A stretch of 64,000 nt of DNA from positions 3,264,001-3,328,000 of the forward strand of contig OY729428.2 of assembly GCA_963422375.2 (NCBI GenBank). Direction: 5' to 3'. Of the stretch, positions 20,533 to 37,091 are shown in pieces. Position numbers and translations under genes: made by a program. A model generated the notes under the pieces. The model did not search any database. It saw only the letters and a program-made list of their open reading frames with translations, and was not told where the DNA came from. The number at the start of each line of letters is the position of its first letter. Positions within the stretch are counted from its first letter, which is position 1. Source of the stretch: Bryobacterales bacterium. GTDB taxonomy: Bacteria; Acidobacteriota; Terriglobia; Bryobacterales; UBA6623.

Positions 20533-21804
20533 TCAGAAGTCGGTCTGGACGACGTAGACGACTTCGCCGTCGCGCTTCTCCATCCGGCCGCCGTTCTCCA
20601 GGATCGCGTCCTTGGCGACGGCGGCGATGCGCTCGACAATCTCGCTGATCGGCGTCCGCAGCTGCAGCTCGTCGCGCGAGATGTTCACGTACTCGTCGTT
20701 GAAGGGCTTCGTCCACGGCCGCCGCTGCCACGCGGCGATGTCTATGGTCAGCTGCGTCGCGGCGCTGCCCATGCCGCTGAGGCCGTTGCGCACGCCGATC
20801 AGGCCGCCGGCGGTGGCGGCCTGGTTGTCGCAGTCGTACCCCGCCGAGGTGGCGATGCCGACGGTGCGCATGTAGTCGCCCTCGCCGTAGAGCACGGCCA
20901 TGATGCCGACCAGCCCGTTCACCAGCGAGGAGACCACGCTGACCGGAGCTTCGAAGTCGCCCTTCTTGTAGGCGTAGTACTTGTCGTGGATCTTCTGGCG
21001 AGTGACGCGCCAGTCGTCGTTCTCGCCGTGCCAACGCACCACGTCGCGCAGGCCCTCGGCAAAGGGGCCCTCGTCGGGCACCGCGGCCGCGCCGATCTCC
21101 ACCAGCTTCTCCACGTCCTGCTCGAAGAACGCCGCGCTGATCATCGCGCCGTAGGCGACGGTCGGGTGGGTGCCCCAGTCGTCGTTGGTAATGCGCGCTC
21201 CCCACTCCGCCCGCTGGGCGGCCTGGGCGGTCATGCCGGGGTAGAACGCGCTCCAGATCTCGTTGACCAGCTGCGGGTCGATCTGGAACCAGTGGCGGTT
21301 GTTCTCCTTGCGGCCGGTGTCGGGGGCCACCATGCCCTTCTCCATCAGGTCGCGCGCCTCGCGGTTGGCGACCCAGATGAAGTGATTGATGTGGGTCTTC
21401 CACATTTCGGTGATCTCGGCGTACGTGATATCGAGTCCGTACTTCTCGACGGCGTGCAGGGTGACGAACTCGATGTCGGTGTCGTCGTCGCTGAAGGCGC
21501 CGCCCAGCGAGCCGAGGAGGACCGGAACGTGGCCGCGACGGTCCCTGGTGTTGATCATGAGGGCCGGATCGCCGTCGTAGTCGGCGGTGTACACGCGGTC
21601 CACGAGAACCGGGACGGGCTCCTCGACATACTTGTTCTCGAACGGGAAGCCCATGTAGTTGCCCAGCAGCTGGCCGATCCAGAAGCCGGACACCTTATCA
21701 ATCAACTCGTCGTGGCTGATGCTCCGCTCCTCCGCGCGCAGTCCGCCGGACAAGGCCGACACTGCCAGCGCCACGATGGCGATCCATGGCGTTGCTCGTC
21801 GCAT
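20533..21804 (-). CDS. Secreted ADP-ribosylglycohydrolase (ARH/DraG-like) family protein
   Basis: Signal peptide; GQLLGNYMGFPFE, SDDDTDIE, IDPQLVNE and GYDCDNQAAT acidic metal-binding motifs. Confidence 0.8.
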   Translation of the reverse strand: MRRATPWIAIVALAVSALSGGLRAEERSISHDELIDKVSGFWIGQLLGNYMGFPFENKYVEEPVPVLVDRVYTADYDGDPALMINTRDRRGHVPVLLGSLGGAFSDDDTDIEFVTLHAVEKYGLDITYAEITEMWKTHINHFIWVANREARDLMEKGMVAPDTGRKENNRHWFQIDPQLVNEIWSAFYPGMTAQAAQRAEWGARITNDDWGTHPTVAYGAMISAAFFEQDVEKLVEIGAAAVPDEGPFAEGLRDVVRWHGENDDWRVTRQKIHDKYYAYKKGDFEAPVSVVSSLVNGLVGIMAVLYGEGDYMRTVGIATSAGYDCDNQAATAGGLIGVRNGLSGMGSAATQLTIDIAAWQRRPWTKPFNDEYVNISRDELQLRTPISEIVERIAAVAKDAILENGGRMEKRDGEVVYVVQTDF

Positions 21805-22305
21805 TCGATTGCTCTCCTCTGCTGGGCGGCGCTCCCTTGCAGCTTGCCCGGCCGACCTGCCGGCCCGGCCATCCTGTTTGTCGCGAGATGCTACGGATTT
21901 GCGCCTTGACTTGGACTATCAATGTACCAATCGAGGTGTCGCTGCATCGCTGCCCCGTGCGACGCACTCGCCGGAGATCAGATGCCAGCGGAAAGGGTCG
22001 GCGGGACCCCCGGGGGCTTTCCGATGCGCAACCCGACCGGTTTCCGGCGGCTATATCCGCGGCGGCCCGGCGTGGCCGCAGCTGCCTTGGAGGAGCAGTG
22101 CGCGGCGACCGAAGCTGCGCCCGCGATTGGGGGGGCGGAGGGAGGGCTCGGCTGGGAGATGCGGATCGACGAGCCGCCGAGCGAGTGGATGCGCCGGCGC
22201 ACCCTGTAGGGGCTCGGTCCCAGACTCGCAGTGGTCGTGCTACGGCGCCTCGCGGGCTCGTGGCGCGGTGCCGCTCGCAGTGCTCTCGCCCGCGGCGACG
22301 GCCAG

Positions 22306-23313
22306 CTACGACTCGACGGCCGCCAGGCGGTCGAACAGGTCGTTGAAGACCGCGTCCCGGTTGAGGTTGTTCGCTGCCCGGATGTTGTGGCGGCCGGCGG
22401 CGCTGTCCCAGCGCATGTCGTCCGTCAGCACAGGACTCGGCACGATCTCCGACGGCACCCACGCGGGTTCGATCAGCCACGCGATCGCCGAGATGTCCCA
22501 GATCACTTTCGAGTACGGATATCCTCGCGGCTTCCCTTTCGTCCGCACGGCGAAGTATTGCAGGAACTGGCCGTAGAGATAGTCCCCGATGCGCGACCGG
22601 CCGCGCATGTGCTCGCCCAGTTCCGGCACCGTCGTCCGCAAGTGCTCGGACACGTTCTTGGTCGGGATCTGCACCAGGGGCACTCCGCTGTCGAACAGCA
22701 CCTGCGACGCTGGCACGTCCTGCATCAAGTTGAACTCGCGCGCCGAGGGCCAGTAGTGCGTGGTCCCGCCCAGCCACACCACCACGATCCTGCTCTTGAC
22801 CCTGGGCTCCATCAGGATCGCGGAGGACACGTTCACCGGGCAGCCGATCGTCAGCACGTACAGCGGCTCGTCGGAGGGCTGCAGCGCCTTCTCGATCAGA
22901 TCCTTGGCGGCTGGACTCTCGACCGGCTTGCCCTTGCCCTCCATGAAGCGGCTCGATCCGCGAAACGCCGGCCGCCTCGTCGCATCGGGCAGGAAGTCCA
23001 GCAGCCGCAGAATCTCCTCGTAGCTCTTCTCCATGCCGATGGCTGCGCTCGCCGAGCGGTCGTTGACGAACGGCGCGGCGTAGATCGCCTCGACTGCCAT
23101 CCGCTCCGGCGACAGCAGGCTGTAGGCGACGGCGTACTGGTCGTCGATCTCGTTGTAGGTGTCCGTGTCGAGCACGACTCGGACACGCCCCGGCCCTGGG
23201 ATCGCCAGCAGGCGGTCGAGATCGACCGCCTGGGCCTGGGCGGAGGCCGCTAGCGTTCCGGCCGCCGCGGCGCCGAGGAAATTGCGGCGCGAAGTCGTTC
23301 CTGCGTGGGGCAT
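22306..23313 (-). CDS. Nucleoside hydrolase (IU-NH family), Tat-exported
   Basis: SRRNFL Tat motif; VLDTDTYNEIDDQYA, EFNL.QD and IWDI motifs. Confidence 0.87.
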   Translation of the reverse strand: MPHAGTTSRRNFLGAAAAGTLAASAQAQAVDLDRLLAIPGPGRVRVVLDTDTYNEIDDQYAVAYSLLSPERMAVEAIYAAPFVNDRSASAAIGMEKSYEEILRLLDFLPDATRRPAFRGSSRFMEGKGKPVESPAAKDLIEKALQPSDEPLYVLTIGCPVNVSSAILMEPRVKSRIVVVWLGGTTHYWPSAREFNLMQDVPASQVLFDSGVPLVQIPTKNVSEHLRTTVPELGEHMRGRSRIGDYLYGQFLQYFAVRTKGKPRGYPYSKVIWDISAIAWLIEPAWVPSEIVPSPVLTDDMRWDSAAGRHNIRAANNLNRDAVFNDLFDRLAAVES

Positions 23314-23347
23314 GATGTCTGGGATCCTCCTTGGCCTCGGTCGCGGC

Positions 23348-24928
23348 CTAGCGGAACACGATCAGGTTCTCGACCACCACGTCGTTGCCTTGCGACCCCT
23401 CGGCCGGCTCGCCGGACACCACTAGCCGGACGGTATGCCGGCCGTCCTCGAGGCCGAAGGCGTGCCACACGGAGTCGCCGTACTTGCGGCTGTCCTCGTC
23501 CGGGTAGACGTCGACCGACTTGTGCAACTCGCCGTCCAGGTAGACCTCGGCCCTGCCGCCGGTCGGCAGGTACGGCCCGGAGATGATCGCGCCGGTGCCC
23601 TCGAATGTGATCGTGGCCTGGGCGCCCTTGCGGGTCGCGAGCTTGCCCCTCCATTCGGTGCCGCGGCGGTCGGTGATGAGCTGATCTTTCCATGCCCCCC
23701 TGAAGCGCCAGCGGCGGTCCGCGGCCGGAACGCGCTCCATCGGCGAGCCGTAGTCGTCCCAAAGCTCCAGCTCGGCCGGCACCGCCTCCTGCTTGCGCAC
23801 GACGAGGGCGCCTCCCTCCACGCGCCCGCCATGGCGCTCGGCCAAGGCGATCGCCCGCTTCTGGGTGCTCTCGACTATGCCGGGGAAGGTGAAGTCGGTG
23901 AAGCTGAACTTCTTCTCGGAAATGGCCGGGATACCGCTCGTTAACCGCTCCGGCATCGCCGCGTAGCCCGTCATCACGCCGAGGATGCCGCAGGCGTTCG
24001 ACGGATTGCAGTCGGAGTCCTGGCCCGCCTGGGTGGAGATCCGCAGCGTGCGCTCGAAGTCCCGCTGGCCGTACAGCAGGCCGAGCGCGATATAGGCGCC
24101 GTTCAGCTTGGCGTCGATGTTGAAGGCGCGCAGCGCGCCGTTCGGGCAGGGCTCGCGCTTGTCCCACTTGTCGGCGATCAGCTGCCACGTCGCCAGCCAG
24201 TCGTCGGGGTGCTCCGCGGACCACTCCAGCACGTCGGCGATCAGCTGGGCGTAGGGGCTCTGCGGGGGCATGCAAGCCAGGCCGGCCTCGACGACCTTGC
24301 GCGGATCGTCCTCGAAGAAGGCCTCCGCGTACATGCACGACACGAACATGCCGCCGTAGATGCCGTCGCCGTGGTTCATGACGCGGCCGGCGCGCCAGGA
24401 GAGGTCGTTGACCGCCACCGGCATGCCCGGCGCCATCAGCCCGATGAAGTCGGCCTCGATCTGGAAGTCGATGTCGTTGGCGTGGGCGTTGTACGCGGGC
24501 GTCCCCGACAATTCCGCCGGCACGCCGCGCTTCAGCGCGCGCCGCGCCCCGAGGTTGGCATGCCACAGGCGGTAGCCGGCGTCGCGCAGCAGGTCGCCGA
24601 AATCCTGCGTGGTGGCGTCGAGGCCCTTCTCGTCGAGCACCGTGGCGAACGTCATCTCGACGTAGAGGTCGTCCTGGTCCAAGGCGGCCTCCACCATGTC
24701 GGGCGTCCACTCGGGCATCTCCTCCTCGGGCACGATGCGCTGGTTGTAGACGAACTCGGTCGGGTACCCGTAGGCCACGCCGACCATCTGGCCGGCCCAG
24801 CCTCCCGCGATGCGGTCGCGGAGGTCGTCCAGTCCGATCGCGGCCTCGCCCGGGCCCAGCGACGGGCCGCACGCGGCCAATGCAACGACGGCCAGCAGGC
24901 TCGCGCCCGCCGCGGAAACGGTTCTCAT
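23348..24928 (-). CDS. ADP-ribosylglycohydrolase family lipoprotein with C-terminal beta-sandwich
   Basis: ATG 24928, lipobox LAAC, GGWAGQMVGVAYG.PTEF, DQDDLYVEMT, HANDIDFQIEAD and GQDSDCNP. Confidence 0.85.
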   Translation of the reverse strand: MRTVSAAGASLLAVVALAACGPSLGPGEAAIGLDDLRDRIAGGWAGQMVGVAYGYPTEFVYNQRIVPEEEMPEWTPDMVEAALDQDDLYVEMTFATVLDEKGLDATTQDFGDLLRDAGYRLWHANLGARRALKRGVPAELSGTPAYNAHANDIDFQIEADFIGLMAPGMPVAVNDLSWRAGRVMNHGDGIYGGMFVSCMYAEAFFEDDPRKVVEAGLACMPPQSPYAQLIADVLEWSAEHPDDWLATWQLIADKWDKREPCPNGALRAFNIDAKLNGAYIALGLLYGQRDFERTLRISTQAGQDSDCNPSNACGILGVMTGYAAMPERLTSGIPAISEKKFSFTDFTFPGIVESTQKRAIALAERHGGRVEGGALVVRKQEAVPAELELWDDYGSPMERVPAADRRWRFRGAWKDQLITDRRGTEWRGKLATRKGAQATITFEGTGAIISGPYLPTGGRAEVYLDGELHKSVDVYPDEDSRKYGDSVWHAFGLEDGRHTVRLVVSGEPAEGSQGNDVVVENLIVFR

Positions 24929-24966
24929 GTCATTGGTCCTCTCTTTGGAAGCACGGTTGCCGATGC

Positions 24967-25962
24967 TCACAGTGTGGCGACGCCGATCAGCGTCAGGCCG
25001 CAGGCGTAGCCGAGGAACATCAGCACGATGAAGGGGGTCGCGCTCTTGGGCGCGCTCTTGAACTCGCGCCAGATGACGACGCCCCATATCGCCGCCACCA
25101 GAGTGGCGCCCTGGCCCAGCGCGTAGGAAATCGCCGGCCCGGCCACGCCCGAGGCGATGACGTTCAGGCCCAGGGCGACCATCCAGATCAGTCCGCCCAG
25201 CACGCCCAGGGAATGCAGCTTGGGGCCGCCGCCGAAGTAGCGCCCGTAGGTCTTCCGGCTGGCCTTCATGAACACCGTGTTGACCACTAAATTGCTGGCC
25301 AGCAGCCCGACGCCGAAGTACAGCAGCGCCGTGTAGGGCGTCAGGTAGCCGGCTTGGATCGGCACCGAGCCGAAGTCCGGCGAGACCGACTGCACCAGCA
25401 GCGGATAGAAGGCGCCCATCGTGCAGCCAGCGATCACGGCGAACAGCATGCCGCGCCCGAGGCGCCGCCCCTCCGCAGGCGGCAGCTTGCTGTAGGCCAG
25501 CGCCGACATGACCATGGCCACGACGATCAGCGCCACGCCCGCGAACAGCAGCGCCGGATCGCCCTTGGGCGTCTGGACGTAGCTGCGCACCGTGCCGATC
25601 ACCAGCGCCAGGCCGACGCCGACCGGGAAGGCCAGCGACATGCCCGCGGCGTCGATGGCGACGACCAGCAGGATGTTGGCCACGTTGAACAGAGCTCCGC
25701 TGAGCATGGCGTCGGCGATCGGCCCTCCGGCCGCCTGGCCGAGGTTCTCGGCCGTGCCCATGCCCGCCGCGCCGAAGCTGCCCAGCGTGAAGGCGAAGAC
25801 GAGGCCGGTCAGGAACACGCCGATCGCGTAGTCCCAGTAGTACAGCTCGAAGGGCCAGTCCTCGCGGCCGGCCAGCTTCTGCGTGTTGGCCCACGAACCC
25901 CAGCCCAGCATGGTGAGCATGCACAGCGCGATCGCCAGTCCCAGGCTCTCGACAACGAACAT
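24967..25962 (-). CDS. DMT-superfamily (GRP/ureide-permease-like) sugar or nucleoside transporter
   Basis: RBS GGGAGG, ATG 25962; WGSWANTQKL, FELYYWDY and ALGQGATLVAAIWG motifs; about 10 TM helices. Confidence 0.82.
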   Translation of the reverse strand: MFVVESLGLAIALCMLTMLGWGSWANTQKLAGREDWPFELYYWDYAIGVFLTGLVFAFTLGSFGAAGMGTAENLGQAAGGPIADAMLSGALFNVANILLVVAIDAAGMSLAFPVGVGLALVIGTVRSYVQTPKGDPALLFAGVALIVVAMVMSALAYSKLPPAEGRRLGRGMLFAVIAGCTMGAFYPLLVQSVSPDFGSVPIQAGYLTPYTALLYFGVGLLASNLVVNTVFMKASRKTYGRYFGGGPKLHSLGVLGGLIWMVALGLNVIASGVAGPAISYALGQGATLVAAIWGVVIWREFKSAPKSATPFIVLMFLGYACGLTLIGVATL

Positions 25963-25972
25963 CGTGACCTCC

Positions 25973-26911
25973 CTATGTCTTCGCCTCCGCGAGGAAGCTC
26001 TCCACTTCGCGGCGCGTCGGCACCGAGCTCTGCGCGCCGGGTCGGGTGACCGACAGCGCCGCCGCTGCGTTGGCGAACCGCGCCGCCTCCCGCGCCGGGC
26101 GCCCGTCGGCCAAGGCCGTGGCGAAAGCACCGTTGAACGTGTCTCCGGCGGCGGTGGTGTCCACCGCGTCGACCTTGAATCCCGCCACGCGCATCGTATC
26201 CCTGGCGGTGGCGATCAGGCAGCCGCGCGCGCCCAGCTTGAGCACCGCTGCCTTGGGTCCCAGCGCCAGGATGCGCCGGGCCGCCCGCTCGACCGCGCCG
26301 TCGTCGTCCAGCGTCCCGTCCGGCTCGCCCAGCAGCGTCAGCGTCTCGGTCTCGTTCGGCGTCAGGTAGTCCACGTGCCGCAGCAGCTCCGCGGGCAGCG
26401 GGCGGGCCGGCGCGGGATCGAGGACGGTCGTCGCCCCGCGCGCCTTGGCGGCTGCCAGGGCCGCCTGTACCGTATCGAGCGGGATCTCCAGCTGCGACAG
26501 CAAGTAGTCATCCGGGCGCAGCGCGCCCAGCCTGTCCGCAGCGACCGCGGGGCTGACTGTCGCGTTCGCGCCCGGCGCGATGACGATCACGTTCTCCCCG
26601 TCCGGCAGCACGAAGATCACCGCCGTGCCGGTCGAGCAGTCCGAAGTGCCGATCGCGTCGGTCCGCACGTCCGCGGAGCGCAGGCTGTCCAGCAGCAGCG
26701 CCGCGAGGCCGTCGCCGCCGACCTGGCCGATCATGCTGGCGCGGGCGCCCATGCGGCCGGCCGCGAACGCCTGGTTGGCGCCCTTGCCGCCGCTGAATGT
26801 CTGCAGGTCGCCGCCGAAGATCGTCTCGCCCGGCTTGGGCAGGCGGGCGACCTGCTGCACGAGATCGGCGTTGAGGCTGCCGATGACGACGATTGCCGGA
26901 CTCTCGCTCAT
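25973..26911 (-). CDS. rbsK: Ribokinase
   Basis: PfkB motifs GSLNADL, GGKGANQA, PNETE and DTTAAGDTFNG. Confidence 0.92.
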   Translation of the reverse strand: MSESPAIVVIGSLNADLVQQVARLPKPGETIFGGDLQTFSGGKGANQAFAAGRMGARASMIGQVGGDGLAALLLDSLRSADVRTDAIGTSDCSTGTAVIFVLPDGENVIVIAPGANATVSPAVAADRLGALRPDDYLLSQLEIPLDTVQAALAAAKARGATTVLDPAPARPLPAELLRHVDYLTPNETETLTLLGEPDGTLDDDGAVERAARRILALGPKAAVLKLGARGCLIATARDTMRVAGFKVDAVDTTAAGDTFNGAFATALADGRPAREAARFANAAAALSVTRPGAQSSVPTRREVESFLAEAKT

Positions 26912-26966
26912 GGCGCGGGAAGCCTCTCCGCGGTCGCGCCGCGGCGCGCGAATGGCGCGGTCGCGC

Positions 26967-28541
26967 TCATCGGAACACCACCAGATGAGTGAGGGCGATG
27001 TCGCTGCCGCCGGAGCCGGGGTACGTCTCGCCGCGCACCACGACGCGCAGGGAGTGCTTGCCGTCTTCGAGGTCGTAGTCGTGCCAGACGGACTCCCCGC
27101 CCTTCTGCAGGTCCTCGTCCGGATAGACGTCGACGGTGCGGCTCAGCTCGCCGTCCAGATAGACGTCGGCCTTGCCTCCGGTGGGCAGGTAGAAGCCCGT
27201 GACCATCGCTCCGCGGCCCTCGAAGTCGATGGAGGCCTCGGCTCCCTTGCTGTCGCTGGTCCGGACAGTGTTCGGGTGCCCCCAGCGAGGAGTCGTCTTC
27301 TCTGTCCAGTCGCCCTTGAACGTCCATCGCTCGTCGGTCACCGGGATGCGCTCCGCCGGCGCTCCGTAGTCGTCCCAGATGTCCAGTTCCGCGGGAACCG
27401 GATCCTGGGTGCGCACGGTCAGCCAGTCGCCGTCGACGCTTCCGCCGTGCCGCTCCGCCATGGCAACGGCGCGCTTCACGGTGCTGTCGACGATGGTGCG
27501 GAAGGAATAGTCGGTGTAGCTGAACTTCTCGTCGGCGACCCTGTCGAGACCGCGCTTGTACTCGTCCGGGATGCCCTCGAGGCCCATGGCCACGCCGAGG
27601 ACGCCGAGGGCGCTGGCGGGGTTGCAGTCCGAGTCCTGGCCGCAGCGCGTGGAGATGGTCATGGTCTTGCCGAAATCCCCTTCGCCGTACAGCATGCCCA
27701 GCGCGATATAGGCGCCATTGAGCTTGGCGTCGATGTTGAACGGGTTGGCCGCGCCCTCGGGGCACGGCTCGCGCGCGTTCCACTTGTCCTCGACGGCGTT
27801 CCAGACGCCGATCCAGTCTTCGGGCTGCTCCTCGGACCACGCCAGCACGTCGGATACGAGCTTGGCGTAGGGGCTCTCCGGCGGGAGGCAGGCCAGCCCC
27901 GCTTCGACCAGCGCGCGCGGATCGTCCTCGAAGAACGCCGCCGCGTACATGCAGCTGACGAACATGCCGCCGTAGATGCCGTCGCCGTGGTTCATGACCC
28001 GGCCCGCCCGGTAGCAGAGGTCGTTGGAGGCCTGCGGCAGCCCAGGCGTCATCAGGCCCACGAAGTCGGCCTCGATCTGGAAGTCGATGTCGTTCGCGTG
28101 GGCGTTGTACTTCGGCGTGCCGCTCAGCGTGGCGGGCACGCCGCGCCGCAGCGCCCGCCGTGCCGCCAGGTTGGCGTGCCACAGACGGTACTCGGCGTCC
28201 TTGAACATCGCGCCGAAGTCCTCCGTCGTCGCGTCCAGGCCCTTGTCGTCCAGCACCTGCGCGAAGGTCATGTCCACGTAGAGATCGTCCTGCTTGATCG
28301 CTCCCGCGATCATGTCCGGCTCCCATTGCGGCAGCTCGTCCTCGGGGATGATCCTCTCGCGGTGCCGGAACTCGGTGGGCGCGCCGTAGCTGACGCCGAT
28401 CATCTGGCCGGCCCAGCCGCCGGCGATCTTGTCCTCCAGCTCGGACAAGGAGATGCGCCGCTCCCCGGAATCGGTGCCGCCCGCGCAGCCGGCGAGAGCG
28501 ACGGCTGTGATCGTGACGAGGTTCAAGCGCGCGCTTCTCAT
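26967..28541 (-). CDS. ADP-ribosylglycohydrolase family lipoprotein (paralogue of 23348-24928)
   Basis: Lipobox LAGC; QDDLYVDMT, HANDIDFQIEAD and GQDSDCNP; colinear with the paralogue over its full length. Confidence 0.85.
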   Translation of the reverse strand: MRSARLNLVTITAVALAGCAGGTDSGERRISLSELEDKIAGGWAGQMIGVSYGAPTEFRHRERIIPEDELPQWEPDMIAGAIKQDDLYVDMTFAQVLDDKGLDATTEDFGAMFKDAEYRLWHANLAARRALRRGVPATLSGTPKYNAHANDIDFQIEADFVGLMTPGLPQASNDLCYRAGRVMNHGDGIYGGMFVSCMYAAAFFEDDPRALVEAGLACLPPESPYAKLVSDVLAWSEEQPEDWIGVWNAVEDKWNAREPCPEGAANPFNIDAKLNGAYIALGMLYGEGDFGKTMTISTRCGQDSDCNPASALGVLGVAMGLEGIPDEYKRGLDRVADEKFSYTDYSFRTIVDSTVKRAVAMAERHGGSVDGDWLTVRTQDPVPAELDIWDDYGAPAERIPVTDERWTFKGDWTEKTTPRWGHPNTVRTSDSKGAEASIDFEGRGAMVTGFYLPTGGKADVYLDGELSRTVDVYPDEDLQKGGESVWHDYDLEDGKHSLRVVVRGETYPGSGGSDIALTHLVVFR

Positions 28542-29904: not shown

Positions 29905-30933
29905 CTAGCGATCGTCCGCCAGTTCCGCTCGCCGGATCTCCTCGGCGATGGCGAGCTGCCGCTTGGCGCGGTCGGGACGGCCTGCCTTGTAGTGGATGCG
30001 ACTCTGCAGGAAGTGCGCCTCGTAGCTCCGCGGCTCGATCTCGAGAGCGCGCTGCACGGAGGCCTCGGCGAGTTCCAGTCCGCCTTGGCCAAGATGGATC
30101 TTGGCCAGCAGGAGCAGGGATCGCGCCAGCCGCTTGTCGAGCCAGACGGCGCGCTTGAGCGCCTCGACCGCCGCTGCGGGCTGCCCGAGGGCGGCCAGGG
30201 TCTCGCCCAGCGCGTGCCACGCGAGGGCGTGCCCCGGGTTGCGCGACAGCTCGCTGCGCAGCAGCGCGGCGGAGCGGCCGTAGTCGCCGCCGCGGAAGGC
30301 CAGCACGCCCAGTTCGTAGGCCGCGCCGTGCAGGTCGGGCCGCCGCTCGACGGCGGCCCGCAGCAGCGCCTCGGCATCCGCAGGGCGATTCTCCCGCAGC
30401 GCGAGCCCGGCGGCGAGCGCGAACGCCTCCGCAGCTGCCGGATCGACGCCGAAGATCTTCGCGAAGGCGATCCTCGCCCGGTCGCGCTGGCCCAGCTGCA
30501 GGCGCGTCATGGCCAGCGAGTACAGCAGGTCGGAGTCGTCCGGCCGCCACGCCGCCGCCTGCTCCAGCAGCGGAGCGGCCTCTCGGAACTGCCCGGCGAA
30601 GTAGCGGGCGGGGCCCAGGATCTCCACCGTCTGCCGCCACGCGGCGGATTCCGCCCGCTCGAGCGCGAGACAGGCCGACAGGTGGTCGGCCGCGGCGGCG
30701 AAGTCCCGCAGGCGGTAGAGCGCCAGGCCGAGGAAGTGCCTTGCCTCGGGCCGCCCCGGCAGCCTCTCGGCCCAAGGCTCGAGCCGCTGGACGACGCCCC
30801 CGTAGTCGCCGCGCGCCAGCAGGGCGTCGGCGGCCCGCACGGCGTCGGCGTATCCCGCCAGGTCGGCGGTCTGGGCGCAGACCGTCCCGGCGGCGCAGGC
30901 CGCGACGAGCGCGAGCCGGAGGGCGGCGCTCAC
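29905..30933 (-). CDS. Secreted tetratricopeptide repeat protein
   Basis: GTG at 30933 overlaps the upstream stop (GTGA). Signal peptide followed by TPR repeats (ARHFLGLALY, AAYELGVLAF, AWHALGETL). Confidence 0.82.
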   Translation of the reverse strand: MSAALRLALVAACAAGTVCAQTADLAGYADAVRAADALLARGDYGGVVQRLEPWAERLPGRPEARHFLGLALYRLRDFAAAADHLSACLALERAESAAWRQTVEILGPARYFAGQFREAAPLLEQAAAWRPDDSDLLYSLAMTRLQLGQRDRARIAFAKIFGVDPAAAEAFALAAGLALRENRPADAEALLRAAVERRPDLHGAAYELGVLAFRGGDYGRSAALLRSELSRNPGHALAWHALGETLAALGQPAAAVEALKRAVWLDKRLARSLLLLAKIHLGQGGLELAEASVQRALEIEPRSYEAHFLQSRIHYKAGRPDRAKRQLAIAEEIRRAELADDR

Positions 30934-32750
30934 GGGGCGGGCGTTCCCCGGCCCTGCTCGAGGACCACCACGCGGTCCACCCCGGCGGGCGCGAACCACT
31001 CGGCCTCGCCGTTCGGCCACTTGACTTCGAGTCGCTCGACGAGCTCGGTGGCGCCCAGGCCGAAATGCACCCGCAGGTCGCCTTGGGACAGGTAGCTGCG
31101 GCCCGACGCCACTTCGCCCCGCTGCCTGAGCCCGTCGGCGACGCAGAACACCTTCGCTCCGATCGCGTCGGCGGGCGTGCGGCGATCCGGCCGGCCGACG
31201 AGCCTGGCCGCGATCCAGTGCGCTCCGTCCGGCGCGTGCCGGTTGCGCAGCACGGTGGGCGGGCCGTCGAGGTTGTTCAGGACGATGTCGGGGGTGCCGT
31301 CGTTGAACAAGTCCCCCACCGCGGCTCCCCGGGAGCTCTTCGGAGCGGCGAGGGCGGCGCCCGCGCTGCCGGACACGTCGGCGAATCTCCCGTTGCGCAG
31401 GTTGCGGAACAGCAGCGTGCGCTGCCGGTAGGAGGTGCCCCACGCCGCGCCGTCCGCCTGGGGGAAGATATGGCCGTTGGCCGCCAGCAAGTCCAGCCAG
31501 CCGTCGTTGTCGTAGTCGAGGAAGGCCGCGCCCCAGCCGAGGAACGGCAGGGTCGCCGCGAGCAGGCCGGACTGCAGCGTGACGTCGCTGAAGTCCAGCC
31601 CGCCCTCGTTGCGGTGCAGGGTGTAGTTGTCGCCGGCGAAGGTGGTGAAGAAGAAGTCGCTGCGGCCGTTGCCGTTGAAATCGCCCACGGCGACGCCCAT
31701 GTAGGCTTGGTCGCGACCGTCGCCGTTGGTGCCCAGTCCGCTGAGCACGCCGATCTCGGCGAACGTGCCGTCGCCCCTGTTGTGGAACAGGAAGTTCGGC
31801 ATCGAGTCGTTGGCCACTATCAAGTCCGGTCGGCCGTCGTCGTCGGCATCGACCCACGCTACGCCCAGCCCGTAGCTGGCCTCCGCCTCGTGCAGGCGCG
31901 CCTGCCGGGACACATCGCGGAAGCGCCCGCCCCCCTCGTTGCGGAAGAGCCGGTCCGCCGCCGGCGCCAGGCCCTTCGGGCCGCAGGCCACCGGGATACC
32001 GTGGTAGACGCAGGCCGGCAGGCCGGGATCGTAGGCCGCGCCCTTCGCCGGCTCCGCCTGTTCGAGGCTGCCGAGGGAACCCCTGCCCGGGACCCGCCCG
32101 GCGGCCGCGCCGCCCGGCGGCGGAGGATTGTCCCAGTCGAAGTCGACGTAGGCCGCCACGTAGAGGTCCAGCAGTCCGTCGCCGTCGTAGTCCCCGAAGG
32201 CGCAGCCAGTGGCCCAGGTGTCGGCCTGCACGCCCGCAGAGGCGGCACTGTCGGCGAAGATGCCGTCGCCGCGGTTCACATAGAGGCGGCTCTGTCCGAA
32301 GTTGGTGACATACAGGTCCGTCCAACCGTCGTTGTTCACGTCGCCGGCGCAGGCGCCGACTCCCCAGCGGTGGTTGGCGACGCCGGCCCGAGCGGTCTCG
32401 TCCGTGAAGCTGCCGTCCCCGCTGTTGCGGAACAGCGCGGCGGCATTCGGCGGCGCGGCACCCCGCCGGGCATCCTCGGACAGGGAATTGACCAGGTACA
32501 CGTCCAGCCAGCCGTCATTGTCGTAGTCCAGCAACGCCACGCCCGAGCCGAGGGTCTCCGGCAGGTACGGCTTCAGGTCGGATCCGGCGCGGTGCCGGAA
32601 CGAGTCCAGGCCGGCGGACGCGGTGACGTCGGCAAACGTCACGCCCGCCGCGGCATGCGGGGACGGCGGCGGGGCGACGACGGTCGGATCGCGCTGGGAG
32701 CCTTGCGCCGCAGCCAGCAGCCCGAGCGCGAGCAGGGCGCGGCCACGCAT
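30930..32750 (-). CDS. CRTAC1 family protein (FG-GAP repeats + ASPIC/UnbV)
   Basis: Repeated D(Y/V/F)(D/N)xDGxxD motifs, RGAAVGDLFNDG and SYLSQGDLRVHFGLG. The start may instead be 32834 or 32873. Confidence 0.9.
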   Translation of the reverse strand: MRGRALLALGLLAAAQGSQRDPTVVAPPPSPHAAAGVTFADVTASAGLDSFRHRAGSDLKPYLPETLGSGVALLDYDNDGWLDVYLVNSLSEDARRGAAPPNAAALFRNSGDGSFTDETARAGVANHRWGVGACAGDVNNDGWTDLYVTNFGQSRLYVNRGDGIFADSAASAGVQADTWATGCAFGDYDGDGLLDLYVAAYVDFDWDNPPPPGGAAAGRVPGRGSLGSLEQAEPAKGAAYDPGLPACVYHGIPVACGPKGLAPAADRLFRNEGGGRFRDVSRQARLHEAEASYGLGVAWVDADDDGRPDLIVANDSMPNFLFHNRGDGTFAEIGVLSGLGTNGDGRDQAYMGVAVGDFNGNGRSDFFFTTFAGDNYTLHRNEGGLDFSDVTLQSGLLAATLPFLGWGAAFLDYDNDGWLDLLAANGHIFPQADGAAWGTSYRQRTLLFRNLRNGRFADVSGSAGAALAAPKSSRGAAVGDLFNDGTPDIVLNNLDGPPTVLRNRHAPDGAHWIAARLVGRPDRRTPADAIGAKVFCVADGLRQRGEVASGRSYLSQGDLRVHFGLGATELVERLEVKWPNGEAEWFAPAGVDRVVVLEQGRGTPAP

Positions 32751-33149
32751 GCGCGGCGCCCGGAGTATGCCCGCGGGTGCCTTGCAAGCGTCGGCGTCGC
32801 GTCGGCCGCTTCGGAGCTGATTCCTCCTAGGCATCGATCCGGCCCGAGCCGTGGGCGTCAGGCGCGCCGTCACTGCCGACCAGCTGCGGATGCACCGAGG
32901 CGGGTGCGCGTCCGTGGAGCCGGTCCATCAGCGTACGGACTTCCGCCCGGCAGAATCCACCTTCCAAAAGCGCAACGGTGCCTCGCCTGGGCTCGTGCGC
33001 TGAATCCGGCCTCGTTCGCGACATCGTATCACGGGCCAACCGCCCGCCAAGCGCGTATCGAGGCGAGACGAGACAGTCGAGCTTCGCCACGCTCCAGCGA
33101 GCAAGCGAGCAAGTGGCGAGCGCGACAGGGGGTCGGTCCCGGCGTCCGC

Positions 33150-36100
33150 CTACTGGGGCTGCAGGCGATTCCTCAGCGCGAGGGCGGTGGGGTCGTCGGG
33201 CCGCACCTGCAGAAGCGCCTCAACGTTAGCGAGGGCGCTCGCCTTGTCACCCAGCGCCAGATGGGCCCTGGCTGCGTTCAGATAGGCCTGGGCGAGTTCC
33301 GGCTTGGCGCTACGGGCCTGCTCGAGCACGAGCAGGGCCTGCCGGTGCCGGCCGGTCTGGATGTACACGCCGCCGAGGTCGGTCAACGCCTCGGCGTACC
33401 CGTCGCGGAAGCGCACCGCCGCCCGCAGCGACTCCTCGGCCTTCGCGAAGTCTCCCTGCTGAGCGTGGACCAGGCCTAGGCTGTAGTGCGCCTCCGGGAA
33501 GTCCGGGTGCGCGGCGATCGCCGCGCCGAGGGACTGGGCGGCTTCCGCCCACGATCCGTTGCGCGCATGCACGATGCCGAGGTCGTGCAGCGCCTTGGCG
33601 TGGCTCGGCTCGATGCGGAGCGCCGCGCGCAGCGAGTCCACTGCCTCTTGCGTACGGCCCGCCTGCAAGTGCAGCCAGCCGAGGTTGTAGTGGACCGTGG
33701 CATTGTCCGGATCGGTATCCCGCGCGGCTTCCAGGGCGCGGCGGGCTGCCGCGAAGTCCCCTTGGCGCGCCGCGACGGTGCCCCAGACGCGCAGCGCGTC
33801 GGCATCTTCGGGAGCGCGTTCCAGCGCCGCCGACGCGGCGGCCCGCGCTTCGGGCAGGTCGCCGATCTCCGCCAGCGCGGTGGCGACATGGACCTGCGCC
33901 GCGCCTCCCGGCAGTCCCAGATCGACCGCCATGCGGTGCTTCTCGAGCGCTTCCGGCCAGCGCCCTTGCTCCGCGTACAAGCTCCCCAGCCGGTCGAGGC
34001 TCGCCGCATGGCGCGGGTGGACCGCGACAGCGTGCTCGAGCGCGGCCACAGCGTCCCCCCTGAGGCCGGCGGCGGCGTACGCGTCGGCCAGCTGGACCCA
34101 GTTCCGCTCGAAGCGGGTCACGTACGCGCGCCCCGGAAACGGCAGCCCGCGTTCCAGGAATTCGGTGTCGCTTTGCGGCCAGCGTTCCGCGTCGGACAGA
34201 ATGCGAGCCGCGGAAGTCCGTCCGAGATAAAGCTTGGCGATGCGGCCTTCCTCGTCGACGAAGAAGGTGGTGGGGATTGCCAGTTCGGCCGACTGGTCGA
34301 GAATGTGGCGGACCAGCAGGTCGAAGGCCGTCACGGTGTCCTCGTCGGGCAGCACCACGGGGAACGGCAGCTGCCGCTCGCGCACGTAGCGGCGGACGGT
34401 GTCGGCTTCGCCGGGCTCGTCTACGGAAACCAGCACCGGCAGCAGCGAGGCGCCTTCCAATGCCGCGCGATGCTCGGCGAAGTCGGCCAGCTCGGCTCGG
34501 CACGGAGCGCACCAGGTGGCCCAGAAGTTCAGTAGCAGCCGCTGGCCGCGGAAATGCCCCGGCTCGAGCTCGCCGCCGTCCAGAATGCGACCGCGCAAGC
34601 GCGGTGCCGGCATCGCCTCCGTCAGCCAAATGCCCGTCCGGGCCGGTTCGGGCCCGGTCGCGGGCTCCGCGGCGGACGAGGGAGCCGCGGCCGGCTCGGC
34701 GAAGAGCAGCGACCGGTAGTCGCTCTGCCCCTCCGTGATCGACACCAAGTGCCCGACCGGCACGCCGCGATGGCGGTCGACCGCGCCCGACGGCCAGTAG
34801 ATCGCCAGCTCGCGCACCTGGTCGTCGGCGCCCAGCCCGAAGTGAGCGGTCCGCGACGGCTGGGAGCGAAATCCCGAGCCGCTGCGCACCGACCGCGTGA
34901 GCCGGCGGCCGGCGGCCGTCTCCAGCACCAGCCGGGCGCCGACCGCGTCGCGGTTGCTCTTCGTACCCGCCAGTCGGACGGACACCGCCGCGCCCGACTC
35001 CGCGAGATCGTTGCGCAGCAGGCGCACCTGCGGGGAGTTGCGGCTGTTCAGGAGGATGTCCACATCCCCGTCGCGGTCGAAATCGAACGTCACGAATGCC
35101 CGGCCGTCCTGCGGGAAGTCCGCGCCAGCCACAGCGGACAGGTCGGCGAACGTGCCGTCGCCGCGATTCCAGTACAGGACGTTGCGTTCCTTGCCGCTGA
35201 GGCTGCCGTTGAGTCGGATCAGCCTGTAGAGCAGCGCCCAGCCGCGCTCGTAGCGCGAGGAGCGGGCTTGCGTTTCGGGCGACGACGACACGACCTGCCG
35301 CCAGAAGAAGCTTCAGAGGTCGGGCGCCCGCCCCTCGGTGCCGGTGACGAAGCCGTTGACGATGTAGATGTCGAGGTGACCGTCGTTGTCGAAGTCGACG
35401 AAGTCCGAGCACCACGCCCAGCGGCCCATCTCCACCCCGGTCGGCACGGTCACGTCGTCGAAGCTTCGGCCCTCGTTGCGGAACAGAGAGTTGCCCCGGG
35501 CGTGCCGCCGGTAGATGTCTGCCCTGGCTCCGGGGCTGTCCTCCTTGAAGTCGCGCTGCGCGGTGACCCGTCGCCCGGCCGACGACCACATGTTGCCGAA
35601 GTAGACATCCTCCAGCCCGTCGCCGTCGTAGTCTCCCAGCGCGACGCTCATGCCGGCCCCGTGGTCCTCGGTGCCCGCCTGCGCGGCAATATCGCGGAAC
35701 GTGGCGCCGCCGTTGCGGTAGAGATTCTTGCGTCCGAAGTCGTTGGCCACGAACAGGTCGGGCCAGCCGTCCTGGTCGTAGTCGCCCCAGGCGCAGGCGT
35801 GGCTGAAGCGGTCGTTGTTGTGGTCGAGGCCCGCGCTGGCGGTCGCGTCCGCGAAGGTGCCGTCGCCCTGGTTGCGGTAGAGGACGTTCGGCGGGCCGTT
35901 CGTCGCGTCATAGTAGGGGCGCGGCAGCTGGGAGGCTGCGTTCGGCCACAAGTACGCGGTCACGTACAAGTCCAGGAACCCGTCGCGGTCGTAGTCGCCG
36001 AGGCAGCCGCCCACCGCGCCCGGTTTGACGCCCAGCGGGAAGCCCTCGCGCGACAGGCTGAACCGGCCATGCCCGTCGTTGAGGAACAGCAGCGGCTGGC

Positions 36101-37091
36101 CCGCGGAGAGGATGAGGATCAGGTCCTGCGATCCGCTGTTGTCAATATCGGCGAAGAAGGCCGCCGAGGAGCCGTCGAGCGCGTCGAGCCCGGCGTCGGT
36201 GCTGGCGTCGGCGAACCGGCCGTCGCCCAAGTTGCGGAACAGGCGGTTGGGCAGGCCGCCAGGCTGGGTGAGGTAGAAGTCCTCCAAGCCGTCGCCGTCG
36301 TAGTCGCCGACAGCCAAGCCCTGCTGCCCGTAGACATCCATGCCGGATGCGGCATCCATGCGCGTCCGCCACACCTCGGTGCCGAAGCGCAGCTGCTGGC
36401 CGAACGAGGGGTTGTGCCCGAAGGCGGCCTGCGACACGTCGCTGAAGACGGCACTCCGCGCGCGGCTGCGCTGGCTGGGGCCGGCCTCGAGACCGGCCAG
36501 CAGCCACTTCCCCTCGGCCGGCTTGCGCCACTGGCAGCGCCACTGGGCGACCAACTGCTCGCGGAAGCCTCCGACCGCCTTGCCGGCCAGTTCGACACGC
36601 AGGTCGGTGAGCGCCGCGCCGGTGCCCCGAGACTCGATGCCGACGATCTTGAACTTGGCCCGGTCGACGGCGGCGAAGGGGGCGAGCAGCTCGTCGAGGC
36701 TCGCGGCAAACGTGCCAGCCTCCACGGTGGTGGCAGCGTGCGGGCTGCCGCGGTACGTCTCTAGCGCGCCGCGGGCATGGACGCGCTCCTCCGAAGCCGG
36801 TGCCAGCGGAGTTCCTCGGAACTCCGGGGCGATGCCGCCACGCCACCTCGGCGAGCTCGACACCAGGCCCGCGGCGATCTCGCCGAGTAGCGCCTCCAGC
36901 TCTCCCGCCTGCAGCTCGGAGAGCGAGCCGTCAGCGTCGGGGTCGACTTGTGCCAGCACCTGCTGGACAGGAGTGCCGCCGGACAACGCGTCCGCGCCCC
37001 GCAGCGGAGCGCTGGCGCCCTCGCCAAAGGACTGTGCTTGGCAGATTCCGGCCGCCGCGCAGATGCACAGCGCCACTAGGCCGTTCCGCAT
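33150..37091 (-). CDS. Exported FG-GAP/ASPIC-UnbV - TlpA-like redoxin - TPR protein with in-frame UGA at 35313-35315 (candidate selenoprotein)
   Basis: ORFs 35313-37091 and 33150-35291 share a frame and are separated only by TGA (RAPDL*SFFWRQVV). FG-GAP repeats continue on both sides of the stop. NFWATWCAPC redoxin motif and C-terminal TPRs. Signal peptide from ATG 37091. Confidence 0.75.
35284..35302 (-). promoter_or_regulatory. Putative bacterial SECIS hairpin
   Basis: UGA + 10 nt + GGCGGCA-GGUCG-UGUCGUC (7-bp stem with two G-U pairs). It shares GCAGGUC with the apical region of the E. coli fdhF SECIS. Confidence 0.6.

Follow-up and report, generated by a model that had tools for sequence, protein, structure and literature searches.

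An in-frame UGA predicted to encode selenocysteine in a CRTAC1-like propeller/redoxin gene of a Bryobacterales bacterium

The window considered here is a stretch of 64,000 nucleotides from the genome of a Bryobacterales bacterium (GenBank assembly GCA_963422375.2, contig OY729428.2, positions 3,264,001 to 3,328,000 of the forward strand), and its minus strand carries a gene that begins with ATG at 37091, ends with TAG at 33150 and contains a single in-frame internal stop, a TGA at codon 593 in the context RAPDL-U-SFFWRQVV. An earlier reading of the sequence (the original prediction), which named no strand, had described two open reading frames (ORFs) in the same frame split only by this TGA, which translation bears out, and had proposed that the UGA encodes selenocysteine (Sec), in which case the product has 1313 residues. 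Database records divide the gene into a protein of 592 residues that ends at the UGA and one of 713 residues that starts eight codons further on (P0003, P0004). From the sequence comparisons set out below, the UGA is almost certainly read as Sec by SelB and tRNA-Sec, guided by a hairpin that lies within the coding sequence.

The gene and its product

The product is probably a single chain, and its signal-like N terminus points to export. Pfam and the translation agree with the architecture that had been predicted for it, an exported protein of about 1313 residues in which FG-GAP repeats, an ASPIC/UnbV domain, a redoxin with a WCAPC motif and tetratricopeptide repeats (TPRs) are combined (Table 1). 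The N-terminal domain has only weak structural relatives (best NTF2-like Foldseek match E 1.5e-4, the rest weaker, with 7-16% identity) and no named match in the Atlas. Shorter Sec forms of about 950 residues, as judged from downstream lengths, are without the TPR array, and many Sec-less forms have RRxFL-like leaders in place of the signal peptide, which are presumably of the twin-arginine translocation (Tat) type.

Residues 208-983 were modelled with AlphaFold2 from 140 rows (predicted local distance difference test, pLDDT, 93.6; predicted template modelling score, pTM, 0.93). In the model the Sec site, represented by Cys, is the first residue of a helix in a two-helix insertion, and the propeller strands resume after it. 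Termination at the UGA would thus give a truncated propeller and not the propeller-only form that the original prediction envisaged. The pTM for propeller, ASPIC domain and redoxin together suggests that these domains are held in a fixed arrangement, which speaks for the relay proposed below. The top Foldseek match was murine CRTAC1 (9etn; E 4.3e-30, TM score 0.73 by target length), and the redoxin matched ResA (1st9; E 4.2e-10).

Table 1. Features of the predicted Sec gene (window coordinates)
Feature	Position	Strand	Basis
Full Sec gene, 1313 aa: signal peptide, NTF2-like, FG-GAP propeller, ASPIC/UnbV, ResA/TlpA-like redoxin, TPRs	33150..37091	-	translation, Pfam
Probable signal peptide, aa 1-19	37035..37091	-	judged by eye from translation
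NTF2/SnoaL-like domain, ~aa 57-211, no Pfam match	36459..36923	-	AlphaFold2 (pLDDT 87.4); Foldseek NTF2-like folds
FG-GAP beta-propeller, ~aa 252-697, with Sec-bearing two-helix insertion (aa 593-603, 612-626)	35001..36338	-	Pfam, AlphaFold2, Foldseek
In-frame UGA, predicted Sec593, helix residue 1	35313..35315	-	translation, homologue codons, AlphaFold2
Predicted Sec insertion hairpin GGCGGCA-GGUCG-UGUCGUC, 17-nt spacer before loop	35284..35302	-	folding, homologue pairing
ASPIC/UnbV domain, aa 716-781	34749..34946	-	Pfam PF07593, E 2.4e-16
ResA/TlpA-like thioredoxin-fold domain, aa 829-960	34212..34607	-	Pfam PF08534 and PF00578; Foldseek ResA 1st9; NCBIfam models below cut-off
CxxC motif C861-A-P-C864 (WCAPC)	34500..34511	-	translation; invariant in 73/73 aligned Sec forms
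TPR array, ~aa 1024-1311	33159..34022	-	Pfam

Decoding of the in-frame UGA

Conservation of the codon was followed in 221 loci, comprising most but not all of the genome matches together with 79 metagenome loci; 165 of these scored at least 55 bits, and removal of four duplicates left 161 rows. Two rows (L110 of G109, with TGA, and L136 of G212, with a sense codon) enter the counts once each and lie outside the AlphaFold2 and covariation alignments, and the conclusions are independent of both. The aligned codon in the 165 loci is TGA in 98, Cys in 17 and another sense codon in 50, with no TAA or TAG at all, so that the homologues contain both of the states, TGA and Cys, for which the original prediction proposed to search. 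A single TGA was present in 53 of 86 matches from 61 related genomes, and a survey of 400 further genomes of the phylum, in which no more than 11 candidates per genome were scored and the counts are therefore lower bounds, gave a TGA match in at least 43 and sense-codon matches alone in 21. Altogether, TGA copies occur in 70 of 101 genomes and in 20 family codes. What is found across this spread is an in-frame UGA conserved together with the frame on both sides of it, as is sought in a selenoprotein. The terminal stops of the 42 TGA-site genes with a visible end are mixed (TAG in 23, TGA in 18, TAA in one), and the internal TGA is thus not a matter of ordinary stop usage. Compared with eight orthologues, the ratio of nonsynonymous to synonymous substitution rates (dN/dS) is 0.04-0.20 both upstream and downstream of the UGA, with synonymous sites near saturation.

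The hairpin starts 11 nt after the UGA and consists of 7 bp and the 5-nt loop GGUCG, as it had been described; the 19-mer folds at -7.9 kcal/mol. As given in a 2026 review (PMC13188914), the rules for bacterial Sec insertion sequence (SECIS) elements are a loop of 3-9 nt, a stem of 4-16 bp, a G in loop positions 1-2, a spacing of 16-37 nt and a minimum free energy of -7.5 or lower, and loop, stem, spacing (17 nt) and energy of the hairpin all lie within them. The resemblance of its GCAGGUC apex to that of Escherichia coli fdhF, which had been offered as evidence, carries no weight by itself, as the Cys paralogue in the same genome shares GCAGGUC, and the likeness is therefore attributable to the encoded peptide. 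The fold of the lone sequence is at chance level, and the support for the hairpin is comparative.

That support comes from the pattern of pairing among homologues. All six inner pairs are intact in 85 of 96 TGA rows, but in only 3 of the 17 Cys rows and 2 of the 48 remaining rows. Among 62 distinct TGA rows, 93.0% of stem cells are paired compared with 85.1% after shuffling (0 of 500 shuffles as high), 23 cells have changed on both sides of the stem, and slid controls are 19-68% paired. Kinship can by itself beat shuffles in a test of this kind, and the better control is the set of 62 sense-codon rows, for which the same structure is 55.9% paired against 56.2% when shuffled. Most of the compensation, and its clearest case, is at the pair formed by the wobble base of the Arg codon and the first base of residue +9, where the combinations are CGG-TCG (47), CGC-GCG (16), CGA-TCG (9), CGG-CCG (8) and CGT-ACG (4). 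When the peptide is held to WR[QH]VV[SAPT] (125 of 161 rows), the three pairs that depend on wobble bases are intact in 84 of 91 TGA rows and 4 of 34 sense rows. The hairpin is thus conserved, with compensatory changes, in the TGA forms only.

The home genome (6.0 Mb, 96% complete) contains selA, selB, selD and tRNA-Sec (selC), each above its curated cut-off, as the original prediction requires. More widely, selA was matched in 71 of 80 tested genomes and in 47 of the 50 that bear TGA; the other three have selB and tRNA-Sec. The DL-x-SFFWRQVV segment occurs four times in the home genome, in the window gene, in two further TGA copies (84% and 53% identical to it over the segment) and in one TGC copy. 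A rough scan of the whole genome kept 289 in-frame TGA candidates, and the 10 whose hairpins reached -6 or better included further sites at C1:502794(-), C2:884406(+), C2:2609581(-) and C3:336656(+). By their motifs we take these four to be a peroxiredoxin (TxxU), a UxxC redoxin, an FdhA-like protein and an ArsC-like protein. The hairpin of the FdhA-like gene (CNRTUHAP) resembles that of the window gene.

Folding of the 60-nt region alone gave no support for the hairpin (z = +0.87; of 200 shuffles, 164 were equally stable). One observation weighs against decoding as Sec, namely that 19 genomes with selA have only sense-codon copies.

Three other explanations of the UGA were considered, all of them improbable to differing degrees. 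The first is that a near-cognate tRNA for Trp or Cys reads the codon, or that it is a regulated leaky stop, as the many residues tolerated at the site in sense-codon homologues might allow. We regard this as very unlikely: Trp is never found at the site (0 in 67 sense-codon loci, 117 proteins and 95 representatives), the hairpin fits the rules for bacterial SECIS elements, and genes of the Sec machinery are present in all 50 tested TGA-bearing genomes, whereas six other genomes without selA have sense-codon copies only.

Less probable still is an arrangement of two translated genes, in which translation would terminate at the UGA and re-initiate at a GTG eight codons on. This GTG is present in 91 of 96 TGA rows, gene callers start the second half there, with the databases following them, and purifying selection downstream fits two genes equally well. 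However, changes in the seven codons between UGA and GTG are mostly silent and the peptide is kept, which indicates that they are translated; the G of the GTG is itself a paired base of the stem, and at the other stem positions compensatory changes occur specifically in TGA rows; the stop at the site is always TGA; and the split would fall within the propeller and leave a second half that has no signal peptide.

A nonsense mutation or an assembly error in a pseudogene, for which the precedent would be one same-genome paralogue with TGA and several frameshifts, can be dismissed almost entirely, as the identical TGA recurs in 70 of 101 genomes and 20 family codes, at identities down to ~36%, and dN/dS does not exceed 0.20 on either side. 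That paralogue is the 84% copy (G000:C1:943001-946856; L017, L019-L022), which keeps both TGA and hairpin and is either a pseudogene or itself an assembly error; the gene next after it encodes an FG-GAP protein, as does that next to the window copy. An assembly error at the UGA is unlikely: window positions 35286-35427 are matched with zero differences by a 142-nt contig from run X2, the short side of which, at 27 letters, is below the 31-letter rule for bridging, and a contig from a different study (X6) covers codon 593 with none of its listed differences there and 11 more beyond those listed. No sense codon was seen in these contigs, on which the test rests since the raw reads of X12 contributed only three partial reads. 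With this, none of the four checks proposed along with the original prediction (reads, homologues, sel genes and hairpin conservation) has told against a Sec codon, and the nonsense mutation that it left open can be rejected, given that the TGA is shared across homologues.

A putative relay between Sec and CxxC

The CxxC motif of the redoxin was tallied in the 139 loci with at least 300 downstream residues, leaving out 22 that are shorter. All 78 Sec forms have it intact, compared with none of the 17 Cys forms and 4 of the 44 remaining loci, and the full pattern W-x-x-[WFY]-C-x-x-C-x-x-E is present in all 78 Sec forms and in 0 of the 61 other loci. In 73 aligned Sec forms, no column of cysteine type is invariant apart from the Sec site and the CxxC pair, which leaves the aligned region without any further conserved thiol that could resolve the Sec. 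The Sec forms also retain the N, W, E and SxD positions of ResA. Among 38 redoxin-bearing sense-codon representatives the canonical motif was found only once, as WCEPC in P0187, which is a Cys orthologue. The genome furthermore encodes a DsbD/CcdA-type domain.

Observations of this kind, among them CxxC retention, the invariant columns, P0187 and the DsbD/CcdA-type domain, lead us to favour a relay within the chain. In such a scheme, the selenolate of Sec593 would attack an oxidised substrate (a disulfide, a sulfenic acid or a peroxide), which the propeller, the NTF2-like domain or the TPRs might hold. The oxidised Sec would then be resolved by C861 in the tethered redoxin, and DsbD/CcdA in the membrane would reduce the C861-C864 disulfide again. 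Where Sec is lost, lineages would acquire mostly small helix-capping substitutes (N, S, D and G, also A and E), after which the CxxC would be lost and the proteins would persist as non-redox scaffolds. We put Sec decoding together with this relay at an even chance. The self-contained redox relay of the original prediction thus gains indirect support from CxxC retention, the invariant columns and P0187, while the relay itself remains putative. A broader and more tentative proposal is that these proteins form an ancestral, often multicopy family of exported selenoenzymes resembling CRTAC1, whose catalytic centre is a propeller Sec that caps a helix and is recycled by the thioredoxin fold of the same chain.

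Standing only slightly below even is the alternative that Sec is inserted and acts apart from the redoxin, in binding a soft metal or ligand or in sensing redox state, with the CxxC domain reducing other exported proteins in the manner of TlpA/ResA. Several findings suit it: at least two lineages (L130; L134/L136/L137), and 10 of 117 database homologues, have lost Sec but retain two cysteines, the substitutes at the Sec site are mainly non-Cys, and one divergent TGA form is free of a redoxin. This form (DG-U-PCLWQAVV; L189:1968-2000, plus strand) has a Cys two residues past Sec, and its frame ends 223 residues past Sec, after the ASPIC domain. On the other side, every Sec form with a readable redoxin has the CxxC, across deep branches, and a search for a Cys or His column conserved specifically in Sec forms, as for a metal site, found none.

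There is also a body of observations that counts against the relay itself. The redoxin profile used for the tally was built from Sec forms, and the 17 Cys forms among the loci have lost the front half of the redoxin and with it the CxxC. Three of the Sec-less database homologues that keep two cysteines (P0006, P0008 and P0033) have a full WCPPC. A FastTree tree of 137 of the 161 rows, with the Sec column masked and with long-branch warnings, has five changes of the Sec state and two of the CxxC; with so few changes, the correlation between the two is largely one clade event. Independent pairs gave one case in the same direction, none in the opposite and two with no difference, which is not significant. 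Cys at the Sec site, found in 0 of the 117 Sec-less database homologues and 3 of 95 more distant representatives, is unusually rare for a catalytic Sec; Cys-containing homologues do exist (17 of 165 loci), other residues being commoner, and the representatives have E in 26, D in 18, S in 15, N in 14, A in 10, M in 5, C in 3, Q in 3 and G in one. A coupling analysis (270 rows, 180 of them effective) yielded noise and no usable contact. The neighbourhoods of 20 loci have nothing in common outside the genus apart from a TonB-like barrel in 5, and offer no hint of a substrate.

Some further observations touch on the Sec site. A clade of paralogues with Cys or other residues at the Sec site (G000:C2:1411729-1415139, L018, and L258-L277, many with RRxFL-like leaders) has as a whole lost the front of the redoxin with its CxxC; as it nests inside the Sec-less clade on the tree, along with the Cys forms among the loci, its Cys may be secondary. 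In the coupling run, noisy as it was, the highest-ranked pair involving the Sec site was positions 386/425 of P0002, equivalent to residues 593 and 632 of the window protein. Ser632, which all 73 Sec forms share and 20 of 58 others keep, is a candidate active-site neighbour of Sec, although confounded by descent. A few of the top coupling pairs join redoxin helix 710-724 to propeller loops 292-325, and these were not counted as evidence.

The neighbourhood scan employed a home-made ORF filter, and 37 of ~195 ORFs were scanned in Pfam. Within the genus, another CRTAC1-type gene often comes directly after the Sec gene. In the window, the region directly downstream (29905-32873, minus strand) holds a 647-aa FG-GAP and ASPIC/UnbV gene without the Sec helix, followed by a TPR-like ORF, and the three possibly form one operon; a promoter and terminator scan found nothing on the strand of the Sec gene. 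Further on, 20533-28541 (minus strand) contains an ADP-ribosylglycohydrolase-family gene (26967-28541, Pfam), apparently two more, and a membrane transporter, and a similar ADP-ribosylglycohydrolase-type gene with a PfkB kinase lies downstream of the L278 orthologue and, as judged by clustering, of that in L279. Elsewhere, neighbours of Sec copies, each seen at a single locus, include a vanadium haloperoxidase-like gene (L295:9160-10758), a multicopper oxidase with an FTR1 iron permease (L290:4007-11091) and a gene of DUF3179 (L297:4191-5222), a family with known Sec forms.

Novelty and relation to known systems

The original prediction placed CRTAC1-type proteins outside the classical selenoprotein families, and Table 1 of the 2026 review, which lists 119 families, indeed has no FG-GAP, ASPIC or CRTAC1 entry (PMC13188914). 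Term searches likewise found no mention of such a family in the main text and four supplements of deep-Sep (PMC12013277), in the main text and one supplement of BSepDB (PMC13326102) or in the main text of the preprint by Haft and Gwadz (10.1101/2022.07.06.499078). No paper on a CRTAC1-like Sec family appeared in the literature listings, the families of Haft and Tolstoy 2025 being covered through the review table only. ASPIC/UnbV paralogues in Solibacter have been named in an account, as far as its relevant part goes, from which selenium is absent (PMC3174227). No NCBIfam selenoprotein model came near its cut-off among the best 25 of 33 matches to the whole protein and all 11 to the core region. 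On sequence grounds, the gene appears to be a well-supported selenoprotein gene of an uncatalogued family that joins a known mode of decoding to a new scaffold, with prior annotation among U-containing NCBI records a possibility. Clusters of ~365 residues in the Atlas with ASPIC and redoxin domains, commonest in Planctomycetota and Verrucomicrobiota, might be post-UGA halves of such genes, which we mention as a lead only.

The bacterial selenoproteome would thereby gain a large family, with three copies in this genome alone in addition to its wide occurrence in the phylum. Gene annotation splits its members in two, and searches based on Sec/Cys pairs have a blind spot for it, because most sense-codon relatives carry neither residue. 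For the bacterial CRTAC1/ASPIC-UnbV proteins, whose function is obscure, it singles out one residue and a chemistry that can be tested. If the broader proposal made above is true, the ASPIC/UnbV proteins of bacteria, which Acidobacteriota have in expanded numbers, would gain their first enzyme function, and the many Sec-less copies would be derived pseudo-enzymes.

In its decoding, the gene is of the fdhF type as that is described in the review, with an in-frame UGA, a hairpin in the coding sequence, GG in loop positions 1-2, 17-nt spacing and SelABCD (PMC13188914). It differs in its host, which is a propeller/ASPIC scaffold, and in its homologues, most of which carry N, S, A, D, E or G at the site and not Cys. 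With murine CRTAC1 (PDB 9etn; phmmer E 6.8e-22) the protein shares an FG-GAP propeller followed by an ASPIC/UnbV domain, both found by Pfam above cut-off and by Foldseek. To this it adds the NTF2-like domain, the redoxin and the TPRs; the structural identity is 19%, and the stretches aligned by phmmer miss the Sec-bearing insertion.

Like ResA, TlpA and StoA, the redoxin has an NxWATWCxPCxxE motif, SxD and a position that we take to serve as the cis-Pro, but here it is part of a chain of 1313 residues, and scores lie far below the NCBIfam equivalog cut-offs (ResA 55/170, StoA 54.6/210, TlpA 48.6/230). Recycling of an exported enzyme within the same chain presumably has a precedent in Neisseria PilB, in which MsrAB is fused to a thioredoxin-like domain; the window protein has no Msr domain and a weak NCBIfam match, and the analogy is one of possible working and not of membership. 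Closest in composition are the catalogued redoxin selenoproteins, namely the UxxC redoxin, the UGC-containing TlpA and the WAxxUGC ResA-like NF041054 (which scores 40.5 bits on the window protein against a cut-off of 300), all of which also unite redoxin and Sec in one chain. Whereas their Sec lies within the redoxin motif itself, the window protein has a plain CxxC there, and its predicted Sec belongs to a different domain, 268 residues upstream.

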